This document shows, piece by piece, positions 4,172 through 58,695 of a stretch of DNA of 64,000 nucleotides. The translations under genes were made by a program, and so were the position numbers. The stretch lies in assembly GCF_054482595.1 (NCBI RefSeq), contig NZ_CM137008.1. One strand, written 5' to 3'. Positions within the stretch are counted from its first letter, which is position 1, and each line of letters begins with the position of its first letter. The notes under the pieces were generated by a model. That model searched no databases and had not been told where the DNA came from. It saw only the letters and a list, made by a program, of their open reading frames with translations.

Positions 4172-5376
4172 TAATCCACCAATAATTCCAGCGCGCGGTC
4201 AACGGCATTCACCAGCGCATCCACATCACTCTTTGTATTATATGGCGCAAATGAGGCGCGCAGTGTGCCGGTTACGCCTAATTCTGCCAGTAGCGGCTGA
4301 GCGCAATGTTGCCCGGCCCGCAAGGCAATACCGTACTCCGCCAGCAGCGTCACCATATCGCTATGATGAACGCCAGCAAAATCAAAGGCCAGCAGGCTGG
4401 AATCCTGGCAGCGGAATGAACGAAAGCCTGGACGTTTCGCCAGCGCATCTTCCGCCAGCGTTGCTAAGCTACGGCTCCAGCTTTCGGCCTGGTTGATATC
4501 GTAATCTGCCAGCCATTCCAGCGCCGCGCTTAATCCTATGACACCAGCGACATTTGGCGTTCCAGCTTCCAGTTTCCACGGCGCAGATTGAGTCGTGAAG
4601 CCGTCAAAACTCACTTCGTGAACCATTTTGCCGCCGCCCAGCCAGGGCGACATCGCCTCCAGCAGTTCTGATTTACCATACAGCACGCCGATACCTGTCG
4701 GGCCATACAGTTTGTGACCTGAAAAAGCATAGAAATCAATATCCAGTTGCTGAACATCCGCGGGGAAATGCACTGCCCCCTGAGCACCATCAACCATCAC
4801 CACCATCCCGGCTGAATGAGCAAAGGTAATCGCTCGCGCCAGATCCGGGCAACCGCCAGTAACGTTCGACATCTGACCCAACGCCAGAATCCGACTACGG
4901 GGAGTAATCAGTTCTGGCAACAAATCGACATCCGGCAGTCGCTGCGCATTAAGCGGCAATTTCACCACTTTGGCTCCAGTTTGTTGGGCGACCATCAGCC
5001 AGGGGACGAGGTTAGCGTGGTGTTCTGCCACGCTGACAATAATCTCATCGCCCGGTTGCAGACGCGGACGCGCATAGCATTGTGCCACCATGTTGATGGA
5101 TTCAGTGGTGCCGCGCGTCCAGACGATAGTTTTATCATCCGGTGCATTCAGTAATTGCGCCACTTTCTCTCGTGCAGCTTCATAACGCGCGGTCAGGCGT
5201 TGGGCTTCGGCAAACTGGCTGCGATGGACGTTTCCGGCGCTCAGGCTGTAAAACTGTCGAGTGGCTTCAACCACGGCTTCAGGTTTAAGCGCGGTCGCGG
5301 CGCTATCGAGATAGACGCCCGCATCCTGTAGTGCGGGAAACTGGGCGCGAAACTGCGCGGGATTAAAAACGTTCAT
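4171..5376 (-). CDS. csdA: Cysteine desulfurase CsdA (PLP-dependent class V aminotransferase)
   Basis: ORF 4171..5412; start chosen at [16 protein letters not shown] giving 401 aa; the 12 extra N-terminal codons in the ORF track are probably not translated. Confidence 0.88.
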
Positions 5377-50760: not shown

Positions 50761-50882
50761 ATCGTATTCCCATTTGTAATAGACAAAAAAAAGAGAAAAG
50801 TAAGCCGCCCTTTCAGGTGGATTACTTTTCTCAGGTCTCTAGTAATTGAAATAATAAATAACATGGAAAGCAGAGGTGTTGT

Positions 50883-50954: not shown

Positions 50955-51008
50955 TTAGCAGTTATGCCCTTATGCTAAAAATTATCTCCAGTTACCAGAG
51001 ATAATGAG

Positions 51009-51054
51009 AAAGGTAACTTCCCTCTCGCGGGGGAAGTTACCTTTCTTTTTTTTT
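51009..51054 (+). terminator. Strong intrinsic-terminator-like hairpin in the ygcW leader (possible attenuator)
   Basis: aaaggtaacttccc-tctcgcgg-gggaagttaccttt (14-bp perfect stem) followed by cTTTTTTTTT; ends 25 nt before the ygcW start codon. Confidence 0.6.
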
Positions 51055-51078
51055 GCCTTACGGAAATTGGAGCTAACT

Positions 51079-51864
51079 ATGTCAATCGAATCTCTCAATG
51101 CGTTCTCAATGGATTTTTTCTCCCTGAAAGGTAAAACCGCAATTGTTACCGGCGGGAATAGCGGTTTAGGCCAGGCATTTGCCATGGCGTTGGCCAAAGC
51201 AGGCGCAAATGTCTTTATTCCTAGCTTCGTCAAAGATAACGGCGAAACAAAGGAAATGATTGAAAAACAGGGTGTTGAAGTTGATTTTATGCAGGTGGAT
51301 ATCACCGCAGAAGGCGCGCCGCAGAAGATTATCGCTGCTTGCTGTGAGCGTTTCGGAACAGTTGATATTCTGGTTAACAATGCCGGTATTTGTAAGCTGA
51401 ATAAGGTGCTGGACTTTGGTCGAGCCGACTGGGACCCGATGATTGATGTGAACCTGACCGCCGCATTCGAGTTAAGCTACGAAGCGGCAAAAATTATGAT
51501 CCCGCAGAAAAGCGGTAAAATTATTAATATCTGTTCATTGTTCTCTTACTTAGGTGGACAATGGTCACCTGCATATTCTGCCACTAAACATGCTCTTGCC
51601 GGATTCACCAAAGCTTATTGTGATGAACTAGGTCAATATAATATTCAGGTAAATGGTATCGCCCCTGGCTATTATGCAACAGATATTACGCTGGCGACAC
51701 GCAGTAATCCAGAAACCAATCAGCGCGTTCTTGATCATATTCCGGCAAACCGTTGGGGCGATACTCAGGATTTAATGGGCGCAGCCGTGTTTCTCGCAAG
51801 TCAGGCATCGAATTATGTCAACGGGCATTTATTAGTGGTCGATGGCGGTTATTTAGTGCGCTAA
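51079..51864 (+). CDS. ygcW: Short-chain dehydrogenase/reductase (KduD/FabG-like)
   Basis: ORF 51004..51864; start chosen at MSIESLNAFSM (261 aa) after RBS ggag; Rossmann motif TGGNSGLGQA; YxxxK catalytic motif (YSATK). Confidence 0.85.
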   Translation: MSIESLNAFSMDFFSLKGKTAIVTGGNSGLGQAFAMALAKAGANVFIPSFVKDNGETKEMIEKQGVEVDFMQVDITAEGAPQKIIAACCERFGTVDILVNNAGICKLNKVLDFGRADWDPMIDVNLTAAFELSYEAAKIMIPQKSGKIINICSLFSYLGGQWSPAYSATKHALAGFTKAYCDELGQYNIQVNGIAPGYYATDITLATRSNPETNQRVLDHIPANRWGDTQDLMGAAVFLASQASNYVNGHLLVVDGGYLVR

Positions 51865-51933
51865 CCCATAACGGTGGTTTCTGTTTTCTCTTATTAATGA
51901 TTATTCCATTTTTATTATCAGGAAGGAATTACT

Positions 51934-53388
51934 ATGTCTTTATCTCGCGCAGCGATTGTCGACCAGCTAAAGGAAATTGTTGGTGCAGATCGCGTAATTA
52001 CCGATGAAACAGTATTAAAGAAGAACAGTATTGACCGTTTTCGTAAATTTCCGGATATTCATGGCATTTATACTTTGCCGATTCCGGCAGCGGTCGTAAA
52101 ACTCGGTTCCACAGAACAAGTCTCCCGTGTGCTGAATTTTATGAATGCGCACAAAATTAACGGTGTGCCGCGTACCGGTGCTTCCGCCACCGAAGGTGGG
52201 CTGGAAACTGTTGTAGAAAACTCGGTGGTGCTCGACGGCTCCGCCATGAATCAAATCATTAATATTGATATTGAGAATATGCAGGCGACGGCGCAATGTG
52301 GCGTTCCCCTGGAAGTGCTGGAAAACGCGTTGCGTGAAAAAGGTTACACCACGGGGCATTCTCCGCAGTCAAAGCCGCTGGCGCAGATGGGCGGCCTGGT
52401 AGCAACCCGCAGTATCGGGCAGTTCTCCACACTCTACGGCGCAATCGAAGATATGGTCGTTGGTCTGGAAGCAGTATTGGCTGATGGCACCGTCACACGC
52501 ATTAAAAACGTGCCACGCCGCGCGGCTGGCCCGGACATTCGTCACATCATCATCGGCAACGAAGGTGCATTGTGCTATATCACTGAAGTAACAGTGAAAA
52601 TCTTTAAATTCACCCCGAAAAACAACCTCTTCTACGGCTATATCCTGGAAGACATGAAAACCGGCTTCAACATCCTGCGTGAAATCATGGTGGAAGGGTA
52701 TCGTCCGTCGATCGCTCGTTTGTATGACGCTGAAGATGGCACCCAACACTTCACCCATTTTGCCGACGGAAAATGTGTGCTGATCTTTATGGCTGAAGGT
52801 AACCCTCGCATTGCGAAGGCGACGGGCGAAGGGATTGCGGAAATCGTTGCCCGCTACCCGCAGTGCCAGCGCGTGGACAGCAAACTGATCGAAACCTGGT
52901 TTAACAACCTGAACTGGGGACCGGATAAAGTGGCTGCCGAACGTGTGCAAATCCTCAAAACCGGCAACATGGGCTTTACCACTGAAGTGTCCGGCTGCTG
53001 GAGCTGCATCCACGAAATCTACGAAAGCGTTATTAACCGTATTCGTATCGAGTTCCCGCACGCCGACGACATCACTATGCTGGGTGGTCACTCCTCTCAT
53101 AGCTATCAGAACGGCACCAACATGTACTTCGTCTACGACTACAACGTTGTCAACTGTAAGCCGGAAGAGGAAATCGACAAGTACCACAATCCGCTCAACA
53201 AAATCATCTGCGAAGAAACCATTCGCCTCGGCGGTTCGATGGTGCACCACCACGGCATTGGTAAACATCGCGTTCACTGGAGCAAGCTGGAACACGGCAG
53301 CGCGTGGGCGTTGCTGGAAGGGCTGAAAAAGCAATTCGATCCTAACGGCATTATGAATACGGGTACTATCTATCCGATTGAAAAATAA
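51934..53388 (+). CDS. ygcU: FAD-linked oxidoreductase (FAD-binding PCMH type)
   Basis: 484-aa ORF MSLSRAAIVDQLKEIVGADRVITDE. Confidence 0.85.
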   Translation: MSLSRAAIVDQLKEIVGADRVITDETVLKKNSIDRFRKFPDIHGIYTLPIPAAVVKLGSTEQVSRVLNFMNAHKINGVPRTGASATEGGLETVVENSVVLDGSAMNQIINIDIENMQATAQCGVPLEVLENALREKGYTTGHSPQSKPLAQMGGLVATRSIGQFSTLYGAIEDMVVGLEAVLADGTVTRIKNVPRRAAGPDIRHIIIGNEGALCYITEVTVKIFKFTPKNNLFYGYILEDMKTGFNILREIMVEGYRPSIARLYDAEDGTQHFTHFADGKCVLIFMAEGNPRIAKATGEGIAEIVARYPQCQRVDSKLIETWFNNLNWGPDKVAAERVQILKTGNMGFTTEVSGCWSCIHEIYESVINRIRIEFPHADDITMLGGHSSHSYQNGTNMYFVYDYNVVNCKPEEEIDKYHNPLNKIICEETIRLGGSMVHHHGIGKHRVHWSKLEHGSAWALLEGLKKQFDPNGIMNTGTIYPIEK

Positions 53389-53481
53389 TGTGTCAGGCAG
53401 CGTTCCGCGATGATGGGGCGTTGCCTTTTCGGCTTCTCAGGCGAGAAGCCGTTCTTATTACCGGACAATGAAGGGGTAAAG

Positions 53482-54819
53482 ATGAACACTTCACCGGTGC
53501 GAATGGATGATTTACCGCTTAACCGTTTTCACTGTCGAATTGCTGCGCTCACTTTCGGCGCACACCTGACCGACGGTTATGTTCTCGGCGTCATTGGTTA
53601 CGCCATTATTCAACTTACGCCCGCCATGCAACTGACGCCGTTTATGGCGGGAATGATCGGCGGCTCGGCGCTCCTTGGTTTGTTTCTTGGCAGCCTGGTT
53701 CTTGGGTGGATCTCCGACCATATTGGTCGGCAAAAAATCTTCACCTTCAGCTTTTTGCTGATTACGCTCGCTTCGTTCCTGCAATTTTTTGCCACCACGC
53801 CAGAGCATCTTATTGGACTGCGCATTTTGATCGGCATTGGTCTGGGAGGCGATTACTCAGTAGGTCACACCTTGCTGGCTGAATTTTCCCCGCGCCGCCA
53901 TCGCGGTGTTTTGCTGGGCGCATTCAGCGTGGTGTGGACCGTAGGCTATGTGTTAGCAAGTATTGCCGGACATCACTTTATTAGCGAAAGCCCGGAGGCC
54001 TGGCGCTGGCTGCTGGCATCGGCAGCTATGCCCGCGTTGTTGATTACGTTATTACGCTGGGGAACGCCAGAATCGCCACGCTGGCTACTGCGCCAGGGGC
54101 GTTTTGCAGAAGCTCACGCTATCGTGCATCGCTATTTTGGTCCCCATGTTTTACTGGGCGATGAAGTGGCAACGGCGACCCATAAACACATCAAAACCTT
54201 GTTCTCTTCGCGCTACTGGCGGCGCACGGCGTTTAACAGCGTCTTCTTTGTCTGCCTCGTAATCCCATGGTTTGTGATTTATACCTGGCTGCCAACTATC
54301 GCCCAGACTATTGGTCTAGAAGATGCGCTGACTGCCAGCCTGATGCTTAATGCGTTGTTAATTGTGGGCGCGCTGCTGGGATTAGTTCTGACGCACCTGC
54401 TGGCACATCGCAAATTTTTGCTGGGAAGTTTTTTGCTGCTGGCGGCAACGCTGGTAGTAGTGGCCTGTTTGCCTTCCGGCAGTTCATTAACGCTGCTGCT
54501 TTTTGTTCTCTTCAGCACCACCATTTCGGCAGTCAGTAATCTGGTGGGCATTTTGCCTGCGGAAAGTTTTCCTACTGACATTCGCTCGCTGGGCGTCGGT
54601 TTTGCCACCGCCATGAGCCGGTTGGGCGCGGCGGTAAGTACTGGCCTGCTGCCGTGGGTGCTGGCGCAGTGGGGAATGCAAGTTACCTTATTGATCCTGG
54701 CGGCAGTGTTGTTGGTTGGTTTTGTTGTGACCTGGCTATGGGCACCAGAAACCAAAGCACTCCCGCTGGTGGCGGCGGGAAATGTAGGAGGTGCGAATGA
54801 ACATTCTGTTAGCGTTTAA
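53482..54819 (+). CDS. ygcS: MFS sugar transporter
   Basis: ORF 53410..54819; start chosen at MNTSPVRMDD (445 aa); polytopic. Confidence 0.8.
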   Translation: MNTSPVRMDDLPLNRFHCRIAALTFGAHLTDGYVLGVIGYAIIQLTPAMQLTPFMAGMIGGSALLGLFLGSLVLGWISDHIGRQKIFTFSFLLITLASFLQFFATTPEHLIGLRILIGIGLGGDYSVGHTLLAEFSPRRHRGVLLGAFSVVWTVGYVLASIAGHHFISESPEAWRWLLASAAMPALLITLLRWGTPESPRWLLRQGRFAEAHAIVHRYFGPHVLLGDEVATATHKHIKTLFSSRYWRRTAFNSVFFVCLVIPWFVIYTWLPTIAQTIGLEDALTASLMLNALLIVGALLGLVLTHLLAHRKFLLGSFLLLAATLVVVACLPSGSSLTLLLFVLFSTTISAVSNLVGILPAESFPTDIRSLGVGFATAMSRLGAAVSTGLLPWVLAQWGMQVTLLILAAVLLVGFVVTWLWAPETKALPLVAAGNVGGANEHSVSV

Positions 54820-55576
54820 AGCCGAACCGGATGCCGGAATGCTGGCGGAAAAAGAGTGGCAGGCGGCGGCTCAGGGTAATAGCGGACCGGATGTTTCGCT
54901 ACTGCGAAGTTTACTCGGTGCTGATGAACAGGCTGCCGCCGCGCTGCTGTTGGCGCAGAGAAAAAACGGTACGCCGATGTCTTTAACCGCGTTGAGCATG
55001 GGGGATGAACGGGCGTTACACTGGCTGCGCTATCTCATGGCTCTTGGGTTTGAGGAAGCTGTATTGCTGGAGACGGCGGCAGATCTGCGCTTTGCGTCGG
55101 AATTTGTCGCTCGCCATATTGCCGAATGGCAGCGTCAGAATCCGCTGGATCTGATAATTACCGGCTGCCAAAGCAGCGAAGGGCAGAATGGGCAAACGCC
55201 ATTTTTGCTGGCGGAAACGCTGGGCTGGCCCTGCTTCACCCAGGTGGAGCGTTTCACTCTCGACGCGCTGTTTATCACCCTCGAACAGCGTACTGAACAT
55301 GGGCTGCGCTGTTGCCGGGTTCGCTTGCCTGCGGTGATTGCCGTGCGCCAGTGCGGTGAAGTGGCCTTGCCAGTACCGGGAATGCGCCAGCGAATGGCTG
55401 CGGGGAAAGCGGAAATTATCCGTAAAACTGTTGCTGCCGAATTGCCAGCGATGCAGTGTCTGCAACTGGCAAGAGCAGAGCAACGACGCGGAGCGACGCT
55501 GATTGATGGGCAAACGGTAGCAGAAAAAGCGCAAAAGCTATGGCAGGACTATTTACGCCAAAGGATGCAGCCATGA
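54797..55576 (+). CDS. ygcR: Electron-transfer-flavoprotein beta-subunit-like protein
   Basis: ORF 54791..55576; start chosen at MNILLAFKAEPDAG (259 aa); overlaps ygcS 3' end. Confidence 0.8.
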   Translation: MNILLAFKAEPDAGMLAEKEWQAAAQGNSGPDVSLLRSLLGADEQAAAALLLAQRKNGTPMSLTALSMGDERALHWLRYLMALGFEEAVLLETAADLRFASEFVARHIAEWQRQNPLDLIITGCQSSEGQNGQTPFLLAETLGWPCFTQVERFTLDALFITLEQRTEHGLRCCRVRLPAVIAVRQCGEVALPVPGMRQRMAAGKAEIIRKTVAAELPAMQCLQLARAEQRRGATLIDGQTVAEKAQKLWQDYLRQRMQP

Positions 55577-56433
55577 ATATCGCAATTGTGACAATAAATC
55601 AGGAGAATGCCGCAATAGCAAGCTGGCTGGCGGCGCAGGATTTCAGCGGTTGTACCCTGGCGCACTGGCAGATTGAACCTCAGCCCGTAGTGGCGGAACA
55701 GGTGCTGGATGCGCTGGTGGAACAGTGGCAGCGAACGCCTGCGAACGTTGTTCTCTTTCCGCCGGGAACGTTTGGCGATGAACTGTCGACCCGGCTGGCC
55801 TGGCGTTTACATGGTGCAAGCATCTGCCAGGTGACTTCGTTAGAGATTCCAACCGTAAGCGTGCGCAAATCCCACTGGGGAAATGCGCTAACGGCGACGC
55901 TGCAAACAGAAAAACGCCCGCTATGCCTTTCCCTGGCGCGTCAGGCGGGAGCAGCGAAAAACGCCACGTTGCCCTCTGGAATGCAACAACTGAACATTGT
56001 CCCGGGTGCGCTTCCGGACTGGCTGGTTAGCATAGAGAACCTGAAAAATGTTACCCGCGACCCATTAGCTGAGGCCAGACGGGTGTTGGTGGTGGGGCAG
56101 GGCGGAGAGGCAGATAACCAGGAAATCGCTATGCTGGCAGAAAAGCTGGGAGCCGAAGTGGGCTACAGTCGGGCGCGAGTGATGAACGGTGGCGTTGATG
56201 CTGAAAAAGTGATTGGTATTTCCGGACATCTGCTGGCACCTGAGGTGTGTATTGTTGTTGGCGCTTCTGGCGCAGCAGCGTTAATGGCGGGCGTACGCAA
56301 TAGCAAGTTTGTGGTGGCGATTAATCATGACGCCAGCGCAGCGGTATTTTCACAGGCAGATGTTGGCGTGGTTGATGACTGGAAAGTGGTGCTGGAGGCA
56401 CTGGTGACAAACATTGACGCAGATTGCCAATAA
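55573..56433 (+). CDS. ygcQ: Electron-transfer-flavoprotein alpha-subunit-like protein
   Basis: ORF 55540..56433; start chosen at MNIAIVTINQ (286 aa); C-terminal FAD-binding region. Confidence 0.8.
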   Translation: MNIAIVTINQENAAIASWLAAQDFSGCTLAHWQIEPQPVVAEQVLDALVEQWQRTPANVVLFPPGTFGDELSTRLAWRLHGASICQVTSLEIPTVSVRKSHWGNALTATLQTEKRPLCLSLARQAGAAKNATLPSGMQQLNIVPGALPDWLVSIENLKNVTRDPLAEARRVLVVGQGGEADNQEIAMLAEKLGAEVGYSRARVMNGGVDAEKVIGISGHLLAPEVCIVVGASGAAALMAGVRNSKFVVAINHDASAAVFSQADVGVVDDWKVVLEALVTNIDADCQ

Positions 56434-56437
56434 CGTG

Positions 56438-56548
56438 TTGCCGGATGATCCTGCCTACGGTTCTGGACTGGGGACCTGTAGGCCTGATAAGACGCGTTAA
56501 GCGTCGCATCAGGCGCTGAATGTCGGATGTGGCGTGCGGCCTACAAAT
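56438..56548. repeat. REP/BIME cluster between convergent ygcQ and ygcP
   Basis: gccggatgatcctgcctacgg, tgtaggcctgataagacgcgttaagcgtcgcatcaggcgc, gtcggatgtggcgtgcggcctaca. Confidence 0.7.
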
Positions 56549-56580
56549 CAAACCAAATTCAATTGGTTACGATTATCCCG

Positions 56581-57156
56581 TCAAAGCAATTTTTTCGCTA
56601 ACGTCCAGACTCCGGTATTCGTGGTGGAAAGCGCCACGACACCCGCGTTAATCGCATTACGCGCATCTTCTTCATCGCATACCAGCCCGCCAGCAATCAG
56701 CGGTTGGCGGATTTTTTCCGTCACCCAGCCCAGCACTTTGGGCATGCAGCCTGGCAGGATCTCAATACAATCCGGATTCGATTGCGCAACTTGCTTATCA
56801 ATGTTGTGAAACGAAATCGAATCAACAATAAACAGGCGATGAATACAGAAAAAACCTTCCGCTCTTGCCGCTTTCAACATTGAGGCTTTGGTACTGATAA
56901 TGCCGTCCGCCTCGGTCACCAGTTTCAAAAACTGAATCACGACTTCTTTATTTGACGCGCCTTCCAGCAAATCAACATGAATAAAAGCATATTTCCCGGC
57001 GTTCTTAATCTTTTTAACGATATTACTGATGGTGCAGATATTGCCGTACAACACGGAAATAAACTGGCATTCAGAGTCGATTGCCAGTTGTAGGCTGGCA
57101 TTATCTTTAACGGCAGCAATCACCGGATTCTGGCGGAGCAGGTGTAAGAGGGGCAT
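56581..57156 (-). CDS. ygcP: GlpP-like (glycerol-3-phosphate-responsive antiterminator family) protein
   Basis: 191-aa ORF MPLLHLLRQNPVIAAVKDN; last gene of the ygcN-ygcO-ygcP minus-strand unit. Confidence 0.8.
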   Translation of the reverse strand: MPLLHLLRQNPVIAAVKDNASLQLAIDSECQFISVLYGNICTISNIVKKIKNAGKYAFIHVDLLEGASNKEVVIQFLKLVTEADGIISTKASMLKAARAEGFFCIHRLFIVDSISFHNIDKQVAQSNPDCIEILPGCMPKVLGWVTEKIRQPLIAGGLVCDEEDARNAINAGVVALSTTNTGVWTLAKKLL

Positions 57157-57172
57157 AAATTATCCTTATTAT

Positions 57173-57433
57173 TTATCCAAAACGGTAGGTGATGCCGAAT
57201 CCGGAAGGCGGATAGCGCCACTGTTGTAGTGTTGATTCGTCGCACAGCAAACGGCAGGTGCCACACTCCAGGCAACTGCGATAGTCAATACGTAAGTCAC
57301 CTTCCGGTGTGAGCGAAAAAAGACCTGCCGGACAGGCGTTAATCAACCGTTCTGCCGTCTGGCGCTCAACGGAGTCAGCCGGAACAATATGTGGCGCATC
57401 AGCAGCGCGCCAGAGATTACGGGCTACAGACAT
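57173..57433 (-). CDS. ygcO: Ferredoxin-like protein (FixX-like)
   Basis: ORF 57173..57469; start chosen at MSVARNLW (86 aa); Cys cluster CLECGTCRLLC. Confidence 0.75.
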   Translation of the reverse strand: MSVARNLWRAADAPHIVPADSVERQTAERLINACPAGLFSLTPEGDLRIDYRSCLECGTCRLLCDESTLQQWRYPPSGFGITYRFG

Positions 57434-58695
57434 CGCAGACTCCTGATAACGTCGCCCGCCAGATGCCACAGGCCGTGACGACGTAAATGACGCCAGAATA
57501 ACTGGCGCAGCGGTGGAACAGGTTTATCACCCTGATCCCATAAATCGCGGGAAATATCCTGCATTAACGCAGGCCACGCCCAATACCAGCCAGGGCGTTG
57601 CAAAAGCGCCGGAACATGCTGATAACGCTGTAGAACATCCCACAGCAGGCTGCGCTCGACGTTGTGATGATAAAGCGGAAACAGATTTTGCGGCTCGCAG
57701 TGCTGGCAGGCGCTTATCAGCGTTTGTGCCGCCGCCTGTGCGCCAGTCAGCGCCATATCCATGCCGCGCACGGAGATTCCGGTATTGACGCAACTGCGTA
57801 ACGCATCGCCCACCAGCAGCCAGCCGTTACCGGCGTATTGCACTGGCATACTGTGCAAGCCACCTTCTGGCACCAGATGCGCACCATACTCCAGTGATTC
57901 CGTGTTTTTGATAAGCGGGCGCACTGCCGGATACGTTTTAAAGCGAGCCAGCAGCTCGCTTGCCGGAACACGACTTTGCGTAAGGGAAGAGAGCGGGCAA
58001 ACAATCCCTAACGAGAGCGTTTGTTGATTAGTATAAAGAAATGCGCCGCCGGGAAAGTCATCACAGATTCCGCCGCTGAACAGCAACGCTGCGCCTTCGT
58101 TATTCTCCAGATGAAAACGTTCTTCAATAGCGGATGTTTCCAGCGACAGCACTTCTTTGATCCCCAACGCCATCGCTTCGCCAGCAGGACGAGTCACTAA
58201 TCCGTGACGTTCAGCCAGGACGCTGTTGGCACCTTCTGCCAGCACCACATAACGGGCGCGGAGAATATCGTCACCACAAATGACACCACACACTCTGCCG
58301 TTTTCTTCATACAGTGCATCCACCGTCGCTCCGGGGATACATTCGACACCTTCTTTTTCGGCTTCGGCAACCAGCCACGGATCGAACCGTGCACGTAATA
58401 CACTCCAGGATTCACCGCCGGGCTGTAAGCTGGAAAACGTCGTTGCGCCATCCGGCGTTAACAGGGAAAGGCTTTCGTGAGTGATGCGTCGTTCAAGAGG
58501 CGCGGTCAGATGAAACTGAGGGAGGAGTTCCGCGAGTGCATGGGTATATAACCGCCCGCCGGAAAGATTTTTGCTGCCGGGGATTTCAGCGCGTTCCAGT
58601 AACAAAACGGATAAACCCGCTCGCGCGCAGCGTAACGCGCAAGCGGTGCCTGCAATACCGGCACCAATAATAATAATGTCGCAGTCGTCTTCCAT
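57424..58695 (-). CDS. ygcN: FAD-dependent oxidoreductase (FixC / ETF-QO-like)
   Basis: ORF 57424..58725; start chosen at MEDDCDIIIIGAGIAG (423 aa); dinucleotide-binding motif. Confidence 0.8.
   Translation of the reverse strand: MEDDCDIIIIGAGIAGTACALRCARAGLSVLLLERAEIPGSKNLSGGRLYTHALAELLPQFHLTAPLERRITHESLSLLTPDGATTFSSLQPGGESWSVLRARFDPWLVAEAEKEGVECIPGATVDALYEENGRVCGVICGDDILRARYVVLAEGANSVLAERHGLVTRPAGEAMALGIKEVLSLETSAIEERFHLENNEGAALLFSGGICDDFPGGAFLYTNQQTLSLGIVCPLSSLTQSRVPASELLARFKTYPAVRPLIKNTESLEYGAHLVPEGGLHSMPVQYAGNGWLLVGDALRSCVNTGISVRGMDMALTGAQAAAQTLISACQHCEPQNLFPLYHHNVERSLLWDVLQRYQHVPALLQRPGWYWAWPALMQDISRDLWDQGDKPVPPLRQLFWRHLRRHGLWHLAGDVIRSLRCL

Follow-up and report, generated by a model that had tools for sequence, protein, structure and literature searches.

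A conserved sense-strand hairpin at the ygcU–ygcS junction of Escherichia coli and two conserved leader RNAs upstream of it

Organization of the ygc locus

The 64-kb stretch of DNA analysed here (contig NZ_CM137008.1; hereafter the window) is from E. coli, with 100% identity to strain Combat11I9 and ~98% to K-12; its plus strand is the reverse of the K-12 orientation, a K-12 coordinate being 2951352 minus the window position. The plus-strand operon ygcWUSRQ is bordered upstream by the divergent yqcE–ygcE genes and downstream by the convergent ygcP–ygcO–ygcN genes (Table 1). Within it ygcS, ygcR and ygcQ overlap one another, and there are only two sizeable gaps, of 69 nt between ygcW and ygcU and of 93 nt between ygcU and ygcS. 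Folding detected no significant structure in the ygcW–ygcU gap (z −0.7), and the literature on ygcU, ygcS, ygcP, ygcW, ygcQ and ygcR yielded nothing on the ygcU–ygcS junction.

Table 1. Features of the locus, in window coordinates except where a homologous locus is named
Feature	Position	Strand	Remarks
Leader motif, yqcE copy	50782-50858	−	yqcE–ygcW intergenic region
yqcE leader terminator	50793-50832	−	17 bp + T8 run; d +31.7
Leader motif, ygcW copy	50980-51057	+	yqcE–ygcW intergenic region
ygcW leader antiterminator helix	50990-50996 with 51012-51018	+	7 bp; covarying
ygcW leader terminator	51006-51022 with 51031-51047	+	17 bp + T8 run; d +39.8 to +41.7
ygcW	51079-51864	+	SDR
ygcU	51934-53388	+	FAD-linked oxidase; FAD_binding_4 and FAD-oxidase_C domains; annotated ygcU
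ygcU stop codon TAA	53386-53388	+	End of ORF 51934-53388
Hairpin 1	53395-53426	+	Arms 53395-53407 / 53414-53426, loop 53408-53413; from folding; d +1.3
ygcS start ATG, PGAP model	53410-53412	+	469 aa; in hairpin 1 loop; unsupported
Hairpin 2	53430-53451	+	Arms 53430-53438 / 53443-53451, loop AGGC 53439-53442; d +2.0
Hairpin 2 T-rich tail, TTCTTATTA	53452-53460	+	Interrupted; T-tract weight 2.94
ygcS Shine-Dalgarno AAGGGG	53471-53476	+	Read directly; 5 nt before ATG
ygcS start codon, K-12 model	53482-53484	+	445 aa; supported by tblastn alignments
ygcS	53482-54819	+	MFS transporter
ygcR	54797-55576	+	ETF beta subunit
ygcQ	55573-56433	+	ETF alpha subunit
ygcP	56581-57156	−	PF04309, 210 bits
ERIC/MITE-like insertion sites, orthologous to window 53389-53429	L007 7455-7641; L009 3688-3800; L011 7455-7709; L054 7455-7629		

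Two hairpins in the ygcU–ygcS gap

A sequence-only reading of the window had placed a hairpin, ggcttctc-aggc-gagaagcc, at 53431-53450, within a 93-nt gap spanning 53389-53481. The hairpin (hairpin 2) lies exactly there, with one further C–G pair closing its base, and the gap length holds for the K-12 start of ygcS, ATG 53482. Its perfect 9-bp stem (six G–C pairs) and 4-nt loop fold alone at −15.6 kcal/mol (z −5.2), a stability matched by 0 of 200 shuffles, and the element is also picked up by a terminator-pattern scan; eight places in the window have a perfect inverted repeat of 9 bp or more with a loop of 3–8 nt, compared with ~1.4 register counts in shuffles. Hairpin 2 is thus not a product of chance. 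The sequence 3′ of the stem, UUCUUAUUA, has six U in nine positions and is interrupted.

Overlooked by the first reading, a second hairpin (hairpin 1) of 13 bp, including four G–U pairs, is followed by UUUU and folds at −20.4 kcal/mol (z −4.2) on the plus strand, as against −11.1 kcal/mol (z −1.9) on the minus strand. The gap as a whole folds as two independent hairpins (−39.7 kcal/mol, z −3.6), with no helix competing with hairpin 2. In Escherichia the two begin 6 and 41 nt after the ygcU stop, respectively, the latter distance arising because hairpin 1 is inserted before hairpin 2, and 30 nt separate hairpin 2 from the ygcS ATG.

Hairpin 1 occurs in all Escherichia loci, with G–U/G–C exchanges, and is absent from other genera. 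Its identification as a repeated or mobile element was rejected, as it is single-copy in every E. coli genome; likewise, searches for REP/BIME, ERIC or another repeated intergenic element in the gap returned one place per genome in 5,092–5,093 E. coli genomes. An Rfam search of the gap came nowhere near a gathering score (its best hit, sroE, reached 16.8 bits versus the required 51) and gave no REP/naRNA4 match.

Conservation of the hairpin across Enterobacterales

Scanned with YgcU, the GTDB species genomes gave 65 loci. In more than 40 Enterobacterales loci, essentially every one, a sense-strand hairpin with compensatory changes follows the ygcU stop, and wherever ygcS comes after ygcU in this order the hairpin is GC-rich and stands just 3′ of the stop. 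Most Enterobacteriaceae have a gap of 52–62 nt, composed of an 8–10-nt spacer, a single hairpin and 20–30 nt that contain the Shine-Dalgarno (SD) sequence; the length of the spacer is maintained despite its unrelated sequence, and ranges from 7 to 22 nt in more distant genera. The stem CGGCTTCYC/GRGAAGCCG is common to the Escherichia–Citrobacter–Klebsiella–Pluralibacter group, and stems unrelated to it are found in Cedecea, Buttiauxella, Serratia, Rahnella, Budvicia and Limnobaculum. Stems that differ from genus to genus include GGCTTCCC../..GGGAAGCC, GTCGGCTC../..GAGCCGAC, GCCTTCCCC../..GGGGAAGGC and CCGGGTCCGTCTG...

Across 33 Enterobacteriaceae sequences, 92.8% of the cells of hairpin 2 are paired, against 38–61% when the partner strand is slid, and double changes occur in five of the nine pairs (11 double-change cells), a level of covariation reached by none of 500 shuffles. 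RNAalifold run on a MAFFT alignment recovered only four pairs, with five sequences out of register, for which reason the explicit pair count is the more informative. Throughout the Escherichia species pairing of the stem is complete, the loop and one stem pair having changed compatibly (CTCAACCGGGAAG to CTCAGGCGAGAAG), and the sampled E. coli strains show no variation in the hairpin.

The fold is more stable on the plus strand in ~26 loci, equally stable on both in ~9 and more stable on the minus strand in one, a comparison that is biased in that the hairpins were picked on the plus strand and the loci are phylogenetically related. Because plus-strand folds are favoured both across loci and for hairpin 1, the junction element appears to be RNA rather than DNA. 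That it should instead be a DNA-level palindrome, either a transcription-factor operator or part of an internal ygcS promoter, is scarcely credible: the 9+9 repeat of the window strain is perfect and equally stable on both strands, but between genera it is the pairing and not the sequence that is kept, the U–G wobbles of other species are asymmetric in favour of the plus-strand RNA, and promoter-like hexamers are absent nearby.

Whether or not a U tract or a downstream ygcS is present, hairpins of −12 to −32 kcal/mol stand after ygcU. Such a hairpin is kept even in Erwinia, Pantoea and some Serratia, where ygcS does not lie downstream, as would suit an element that bounds the ygcWU unit.

The interval that separates the conserved hairpin from the ygcU stop also holds ERIC/MITE-like palindromic elements of ~50–200 nt, flanked by TATACGC...GCGTATA, in Klebsiella spallanzanii, Citrobacter koseri, Enterobacter sp. 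10-1 and Raoultella terrigena (Table 1). As Escherichia hairpin 1 shares this spot, the site after the ygcU stop qualifies as an insertion hot spot. An ERIC-like element is present in the yqcE leader region of two loci as well (L007 and L012).

Twin leader motifs upstream of ygcW and yqcE

The yqcE–ygcW intergenic region contains two copies of a further RNA motif, one in the leader of each divergent unit. Among 91 aligned sequences, the 17-bp helix of the terminator is 91.9% paired with 65 double-change cells, and a 7-bp helix upstream of it (RTTACY/RGTAAY), which overlaps the 5′ arm of the terminator, is 84.5% paired with 51 double-change cells; both helices covary, and 0 of 500 shuffles reach the observed values. 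One column covaries with both of its partners, as expected for mutually exclusive helices, and the loop GAG-N-GAGAAA is invariant. With the terminator at −34 kcal/mol far outweighing the antiterminators at −6.7 and −1.4 kcal/mol, a factor would be needed to stabilise the antiterminator.

No Rfam family matches the leader region. Covariance models R1 and R2, defined in the present analysis, match only the two leaders in the whole window. Two candidate copies inside the ygcU–ygcS gap were rejected: UUACC-GGACAAUGAAGG-GGUAA (53458-53479) as a copy of the leader antiterminator, which the covariance models miss and whose helix folds at −3.7 kcal/mol (z −1.4), and the minus strand of the gap as a degenerate inverted leader copy (8.4 bits, E 0.75).

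Elsewhere, copies of the motif were detected with the covariance model in a Firmicutes MAG, Enterococcus canis, Salsuginibacillus, Alkalicoccus, Vibrio hannami, Clostridium sediminicola and Fodinisporobacter, each copy lying beside genes for a PF04309 (GlpP-family) protein, an SDR, an FAD-oxidase and an FGGY kinase; no copy was found in six Firmicutes loci that have no PF04309 gene within the fetched locus. The twin leader attenuators are thus strictly tied to a GlpP-family gene from the Enterobacterales to Vibrio, Bacillales, Enterococcus and Clostridia. In C. sediminicola a full copy (L069 2265-2337, minus strand) is situated inside an operon, between the FGGY kinase and FAD-oxidase genes, so that other lineages do have regulated terminators inside operons of this gene module.

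In the ygc locus, the GlpP-family gene is ygcP. B. subtilis GlpP acts on the leader terminators of glpD, glpFK and glpTQ (PMC9604022, PMC10573289), which makes YgcP-dependent antitermination the natural hypothesis for the leaders, and they are likely to constitute such a switch. In operon context, and in that alone, the ygc locus resembles the B. subtilis glp system, having a full-length GlpP-family gene and leader terminators with mapped 3′ ends; the ygcU–ygcS hairpin does not carry the ygc leader motif, and binding of YgcP is putative. The motif offers a handle on the inducer and function of the uncharacterised ygc catabolic cluster.

With the E. coli proteins as queries against the homologous loci (L003–L070), YgcP shows higher conservation than its ETF and ferredoxin-like neighbours, its identity in Citrobacter and Klebsiella being 95–97% versus 55–78% for YgcR, YgcQ and YgcO, and ygcP stays linked to homologues of ygcW, ygcU and ygcE even where gene order is rearranged. 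B. subtilis GlpP is not among the best 120 YgcP homologues.

Terminator quality and mapped 3′ ends

The d'Aubenton-Carafa discriminant d, computed by script with zero as the threshold, places the two junction hairpins ~30–40 units under the leader terminators (Table 1), which do have mapped 3′ ends. Across genera, d of the junction hairpin varies from −44 to +44. Canonical U7–U8 tracts directly after the stem are found in Citrobacter sedlakii (d +44.5), a Pluralibacter MAG (+34), Limnobaculum (+38 and +24) and another MAG, L015 (+28), and among loci in which ygcU is not followed by ygcS d is negative in eight of nine. What is conserved, as far as the alignments tell, is the hairpin and not the U tract, and because the tract is not conserved canonical termination does not appear to be the universally selected function.

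Term-seq of cells grown in LB to OD 0.4 (Adams et al. 2021, PMC7815308, supplementary files 1 and 3) located one 3′ end 38 nt upstream of ygcW, at K-12 2900311 (minus strand), which had ~40,640 reads and an intrinsic score of 15.8 and was not Rho-dependent, and another 36 nt upstream of yqcE, at K-12 2900556 (plus strand), with 1,557 reads and an intrinsic score of 11.4; independently, termini in the 5′ UTRs of both genes are listed in the TRS dataset of 2023 (PMC10687069, file 4). These 3′ ends fall in the two leader copies. The main control of the operon lies upstream, in these two conserved leader RNAs.

Mapping of 3′ ends had been suggested as the check on the junction hairpin, and neither dataset lists an end at the ygcU–ygcS junction, which was barely transcribed in them. 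Since under those conditions the operon is already stopped at the ygcW leader, the missing end says little. The notion of a weak internal terminator or attenuator gains from the conserved sense-strand hairpin, its compensatory changes and the canonical U tracts of several genera; it is tempered for E. coli, where the tract is broken and d is borderline. Going by its sequence, the E. coli hairpin can be at most a leaky terminator.

Role of the junction hairpins

The junction element appears to belong to an ordinary kind, that of intercistronic hairpins or weak terminators, and its comparative support is good. E. coli operons contain well-known examples of intercistronic partial intrinsic terminators, namely the rplL–rpoB attenuator of rplKAJL-rpoBC and T1 of rpsU-dnaG-rpoD. 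Like these, the junction element is a GC-rich hairpin with T-rich sequence after it, set in the short space between two genes of an operon that run in the same direction, and the genes downstream have no evident promoter of their own and are reliant on readthrough; unlike these, which have good U tracts and measured termination efficiencies, its U tract is interrupted, its d is borderline and no 3′ end has been mapped to it. A second class of intercistronic structures, represented by the malE–malF REP and the stem-loops of the Rhodobacter puf operon, comprises barriers to 3′ exonucleases that give rise to segmental mRNA stability. The ygcU–ygcS hairpin shares with them a stable stem-loop directly 3′ of the upstream cistron, kept independently of a U tract, as expected if 3′-end protection is selected. 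It differs from malE–malF in being single-copy, without a REP/naRNA4 match, and an effect on segmental stability is putative.

We consider it somewhat better than an even bet that the element is a leaky intrinsic terminator, a 3′-exonuclease barrier or both, which marks the boundary between ygcWU and ygcSRQ and lowers ygcSRQ relative to ygcWU. The sense-strand structure would mark the 3′ boundary of the ygcW–ygcU part of the ygcWUSRQ transcript. RNA polymerase that had passed the leader terminator would meet a stable stem, which in hairpin 2 is GC-rich, 9 bp long, closed by a 4-nt loop and on the plus strand after ygcU, followed by an interrupted U tract at which a fraction of transcripts might end. 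The stem or stems would shield transcripts that had ended there, or been cleaved downstream, from 3′–5′ exonucleases, the same boundary structure terminating where a U tract exists and elsewhere blocking exonucleases. The net effect would be more ygcW–ygcU (dehydrogenase) message than ygcS–ygcR–ygcQ (transporter/ETF) message. The promoter scan found no sigma-70-like site in 52100-53480, and with only 30 nt from hairpin to ATG ygcSRQ should depend on readthrough from upstream; the hairpin thus argues for different expression levels of ygcWU and ygcSRQ from one transcript. Termination, stabilisation and an effect on the expression ratio, including the earlier idea that the site sets the dehydrogenase to transporter/ETF ratio, are what we infer from a structure whose strand bias, positional conservation and covariation are observed.

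Considerably less probable, if still to be reckoned with, is that the hairpin is a relic: a terminator in decay, inherited from an ancestor in which ygcW and ygcU formed a two-gene unit, which persists through inertia and has no measurable effect on ygcSRQ expression in Escherichia. Such a history is consistent with the degradation of the Escherichia U tract relative to several other genera (d ~+2), with the Enterobacterales that have ygcWU without a downstream ygcS, with the lack of a mapped junction 3′ end in the two datasets and with the tolerance of the site to insertions, Escherichia hairpin 1 among them. A decaying element would, however, not be expected to remain perfectly paired in Escherichia and all sampled E. 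coli while its loop and one pair changed, nor to have its stems preserved by compensatory changes over family-level distances, and Escherichia has gained a second, strand-specific hairpin instead of losing the first.

Improbable, to a greater degree than decay, is a link to translation, by which the hairpins would modulate initiation at ygcS or couple termination to translation of ygcU. Ribosomes standing at the ygcU stop would cover a hairpin that begins 6–10 nt downstream, so that termination would take place only when ygcU is poorly translated. Li et al. 2016 (PMC4824070) found, in a synthetic reporter, that the lambda tR2 terminator was almost fully repressed when a stop codon lay 8–9 bp away and had full activity at distances above 30 bp. 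The spacing in most Enterobacteriaceae, kept without conservation of spacer sequence, falls within this masking range, and in Escherichia hairpin 1 holds the corresponding position; hairpin 2 of E. coli, on the other hand, is beyond the shielded range, distances of 7–22 nt occur in more distant genera, and the weak helix that would touch the SD sequence, 53458-53462 paired with 53475-53479, lacks significance at −3.7 kcal/mol (z −1.4).

We give even less credence to a combined scheme in which the tandem hairpins are a regulated second checkpoint, a translation- or YgcP-sensitive internal attenuator, or else the terminator of a small RNA derived from the ygcU 3′ UTR. Were the former true, the checkpoint would decide on the transporter/ETF half once the leader had been passed, and Escherichia, by acquiring hairpin 1, would have rewired it adaptively; were the latter true, the small RNA would be made of hairpins 1 and 2.

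Taken by itself, a second YgcP-dependent antitermination site of the GlpP type inside the operon is very doubtful. The operon is flanked by ygcP, both leaders of the locus contain the conserved terminator/antiterminator motif, and C. sediminicola provides an intercistronic copy; yet with filters off the motif covariance models have no plus-strand match in 51100-58000, the best match in these 6.9 kb being on the minus strand (8.4 bits, E 0.75), the hairpin faces no competing alternative helix, and the invariant GAG..GAGAAA loop is missing.

The start codon of ygcS

In the RefSeq/PGAP annotation of the window strain, ygcS begins at ATG 53410, which places hairpin 2 within the CDS. PGAP uses this long start in many E. 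coli genomes and the short one in others, an inconsistency of annotation. That the gap is coding, contributing the N-terminal 24 residues of a 469-aa YgcS, can be given hardly any weight, even though ATG 53410 is in frame with ygcS without an intervening stop. This ATG is confined to the Escherichia-specific insertion; in most non-Escherichia loci an in-frame upstream start is absent, none is conserved, and several loci have a stop four codons upstream. In most loci with ygcS after ygcU the YgcS tblastn alignments open at K-12 Met1 (in the most distant ones a few residues past it), which is preceded by the conserved AAGGGG, part of a block, TTACCGGACAATGAAGGGGTA, kept across the Escherichia/Citrobacter/Klebsiella clade. 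In E. coli SCU-102 a 1-nt deletion breaks the long frame, and ygcS is annotated there from the K-12 start. The 24-aa extension has no Pfam match. Given the alignments from Met1, the Escherichia-only ATG, the conserved AAGGGG and the SCU-102 deletion, the gap is best read as non-coding; on this comparative evidence the PGAP start is wrong, 24 codons too long, and the supposed extension corresponds to the two RNA hairpins.

A mini-ORF, ATG AAG GGG TAA, at 53468-53479 overlaps the ygcS SD sequence and stops 2 nt before the ygcS ATG. Its form (ATGAAGGGGTAG/TAA) is kept in the Escherichia–Citrobacter–Klebsiella clade, C. amalonaticus having lost it through a 5-nt deletion; lacking an SD sequence of its own, it is probably incidental.

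The rare E. coli 2015C-4136CT1 (locus L073) has a deletion orthologous to window ~53380-53530, which removes the 3′ end of ygcU, the entire gap and the start of ygcS, and its ygcU is annotated as a pseudogene missing the C-terminus. Between ygcQ and ygcP, a weak Rfam naRNA4 (REP-type) match on both strands of 56481-56554 (32.8 bits versus a gathering score of 59.5) is probably a REP/BIME where the two operons converge.
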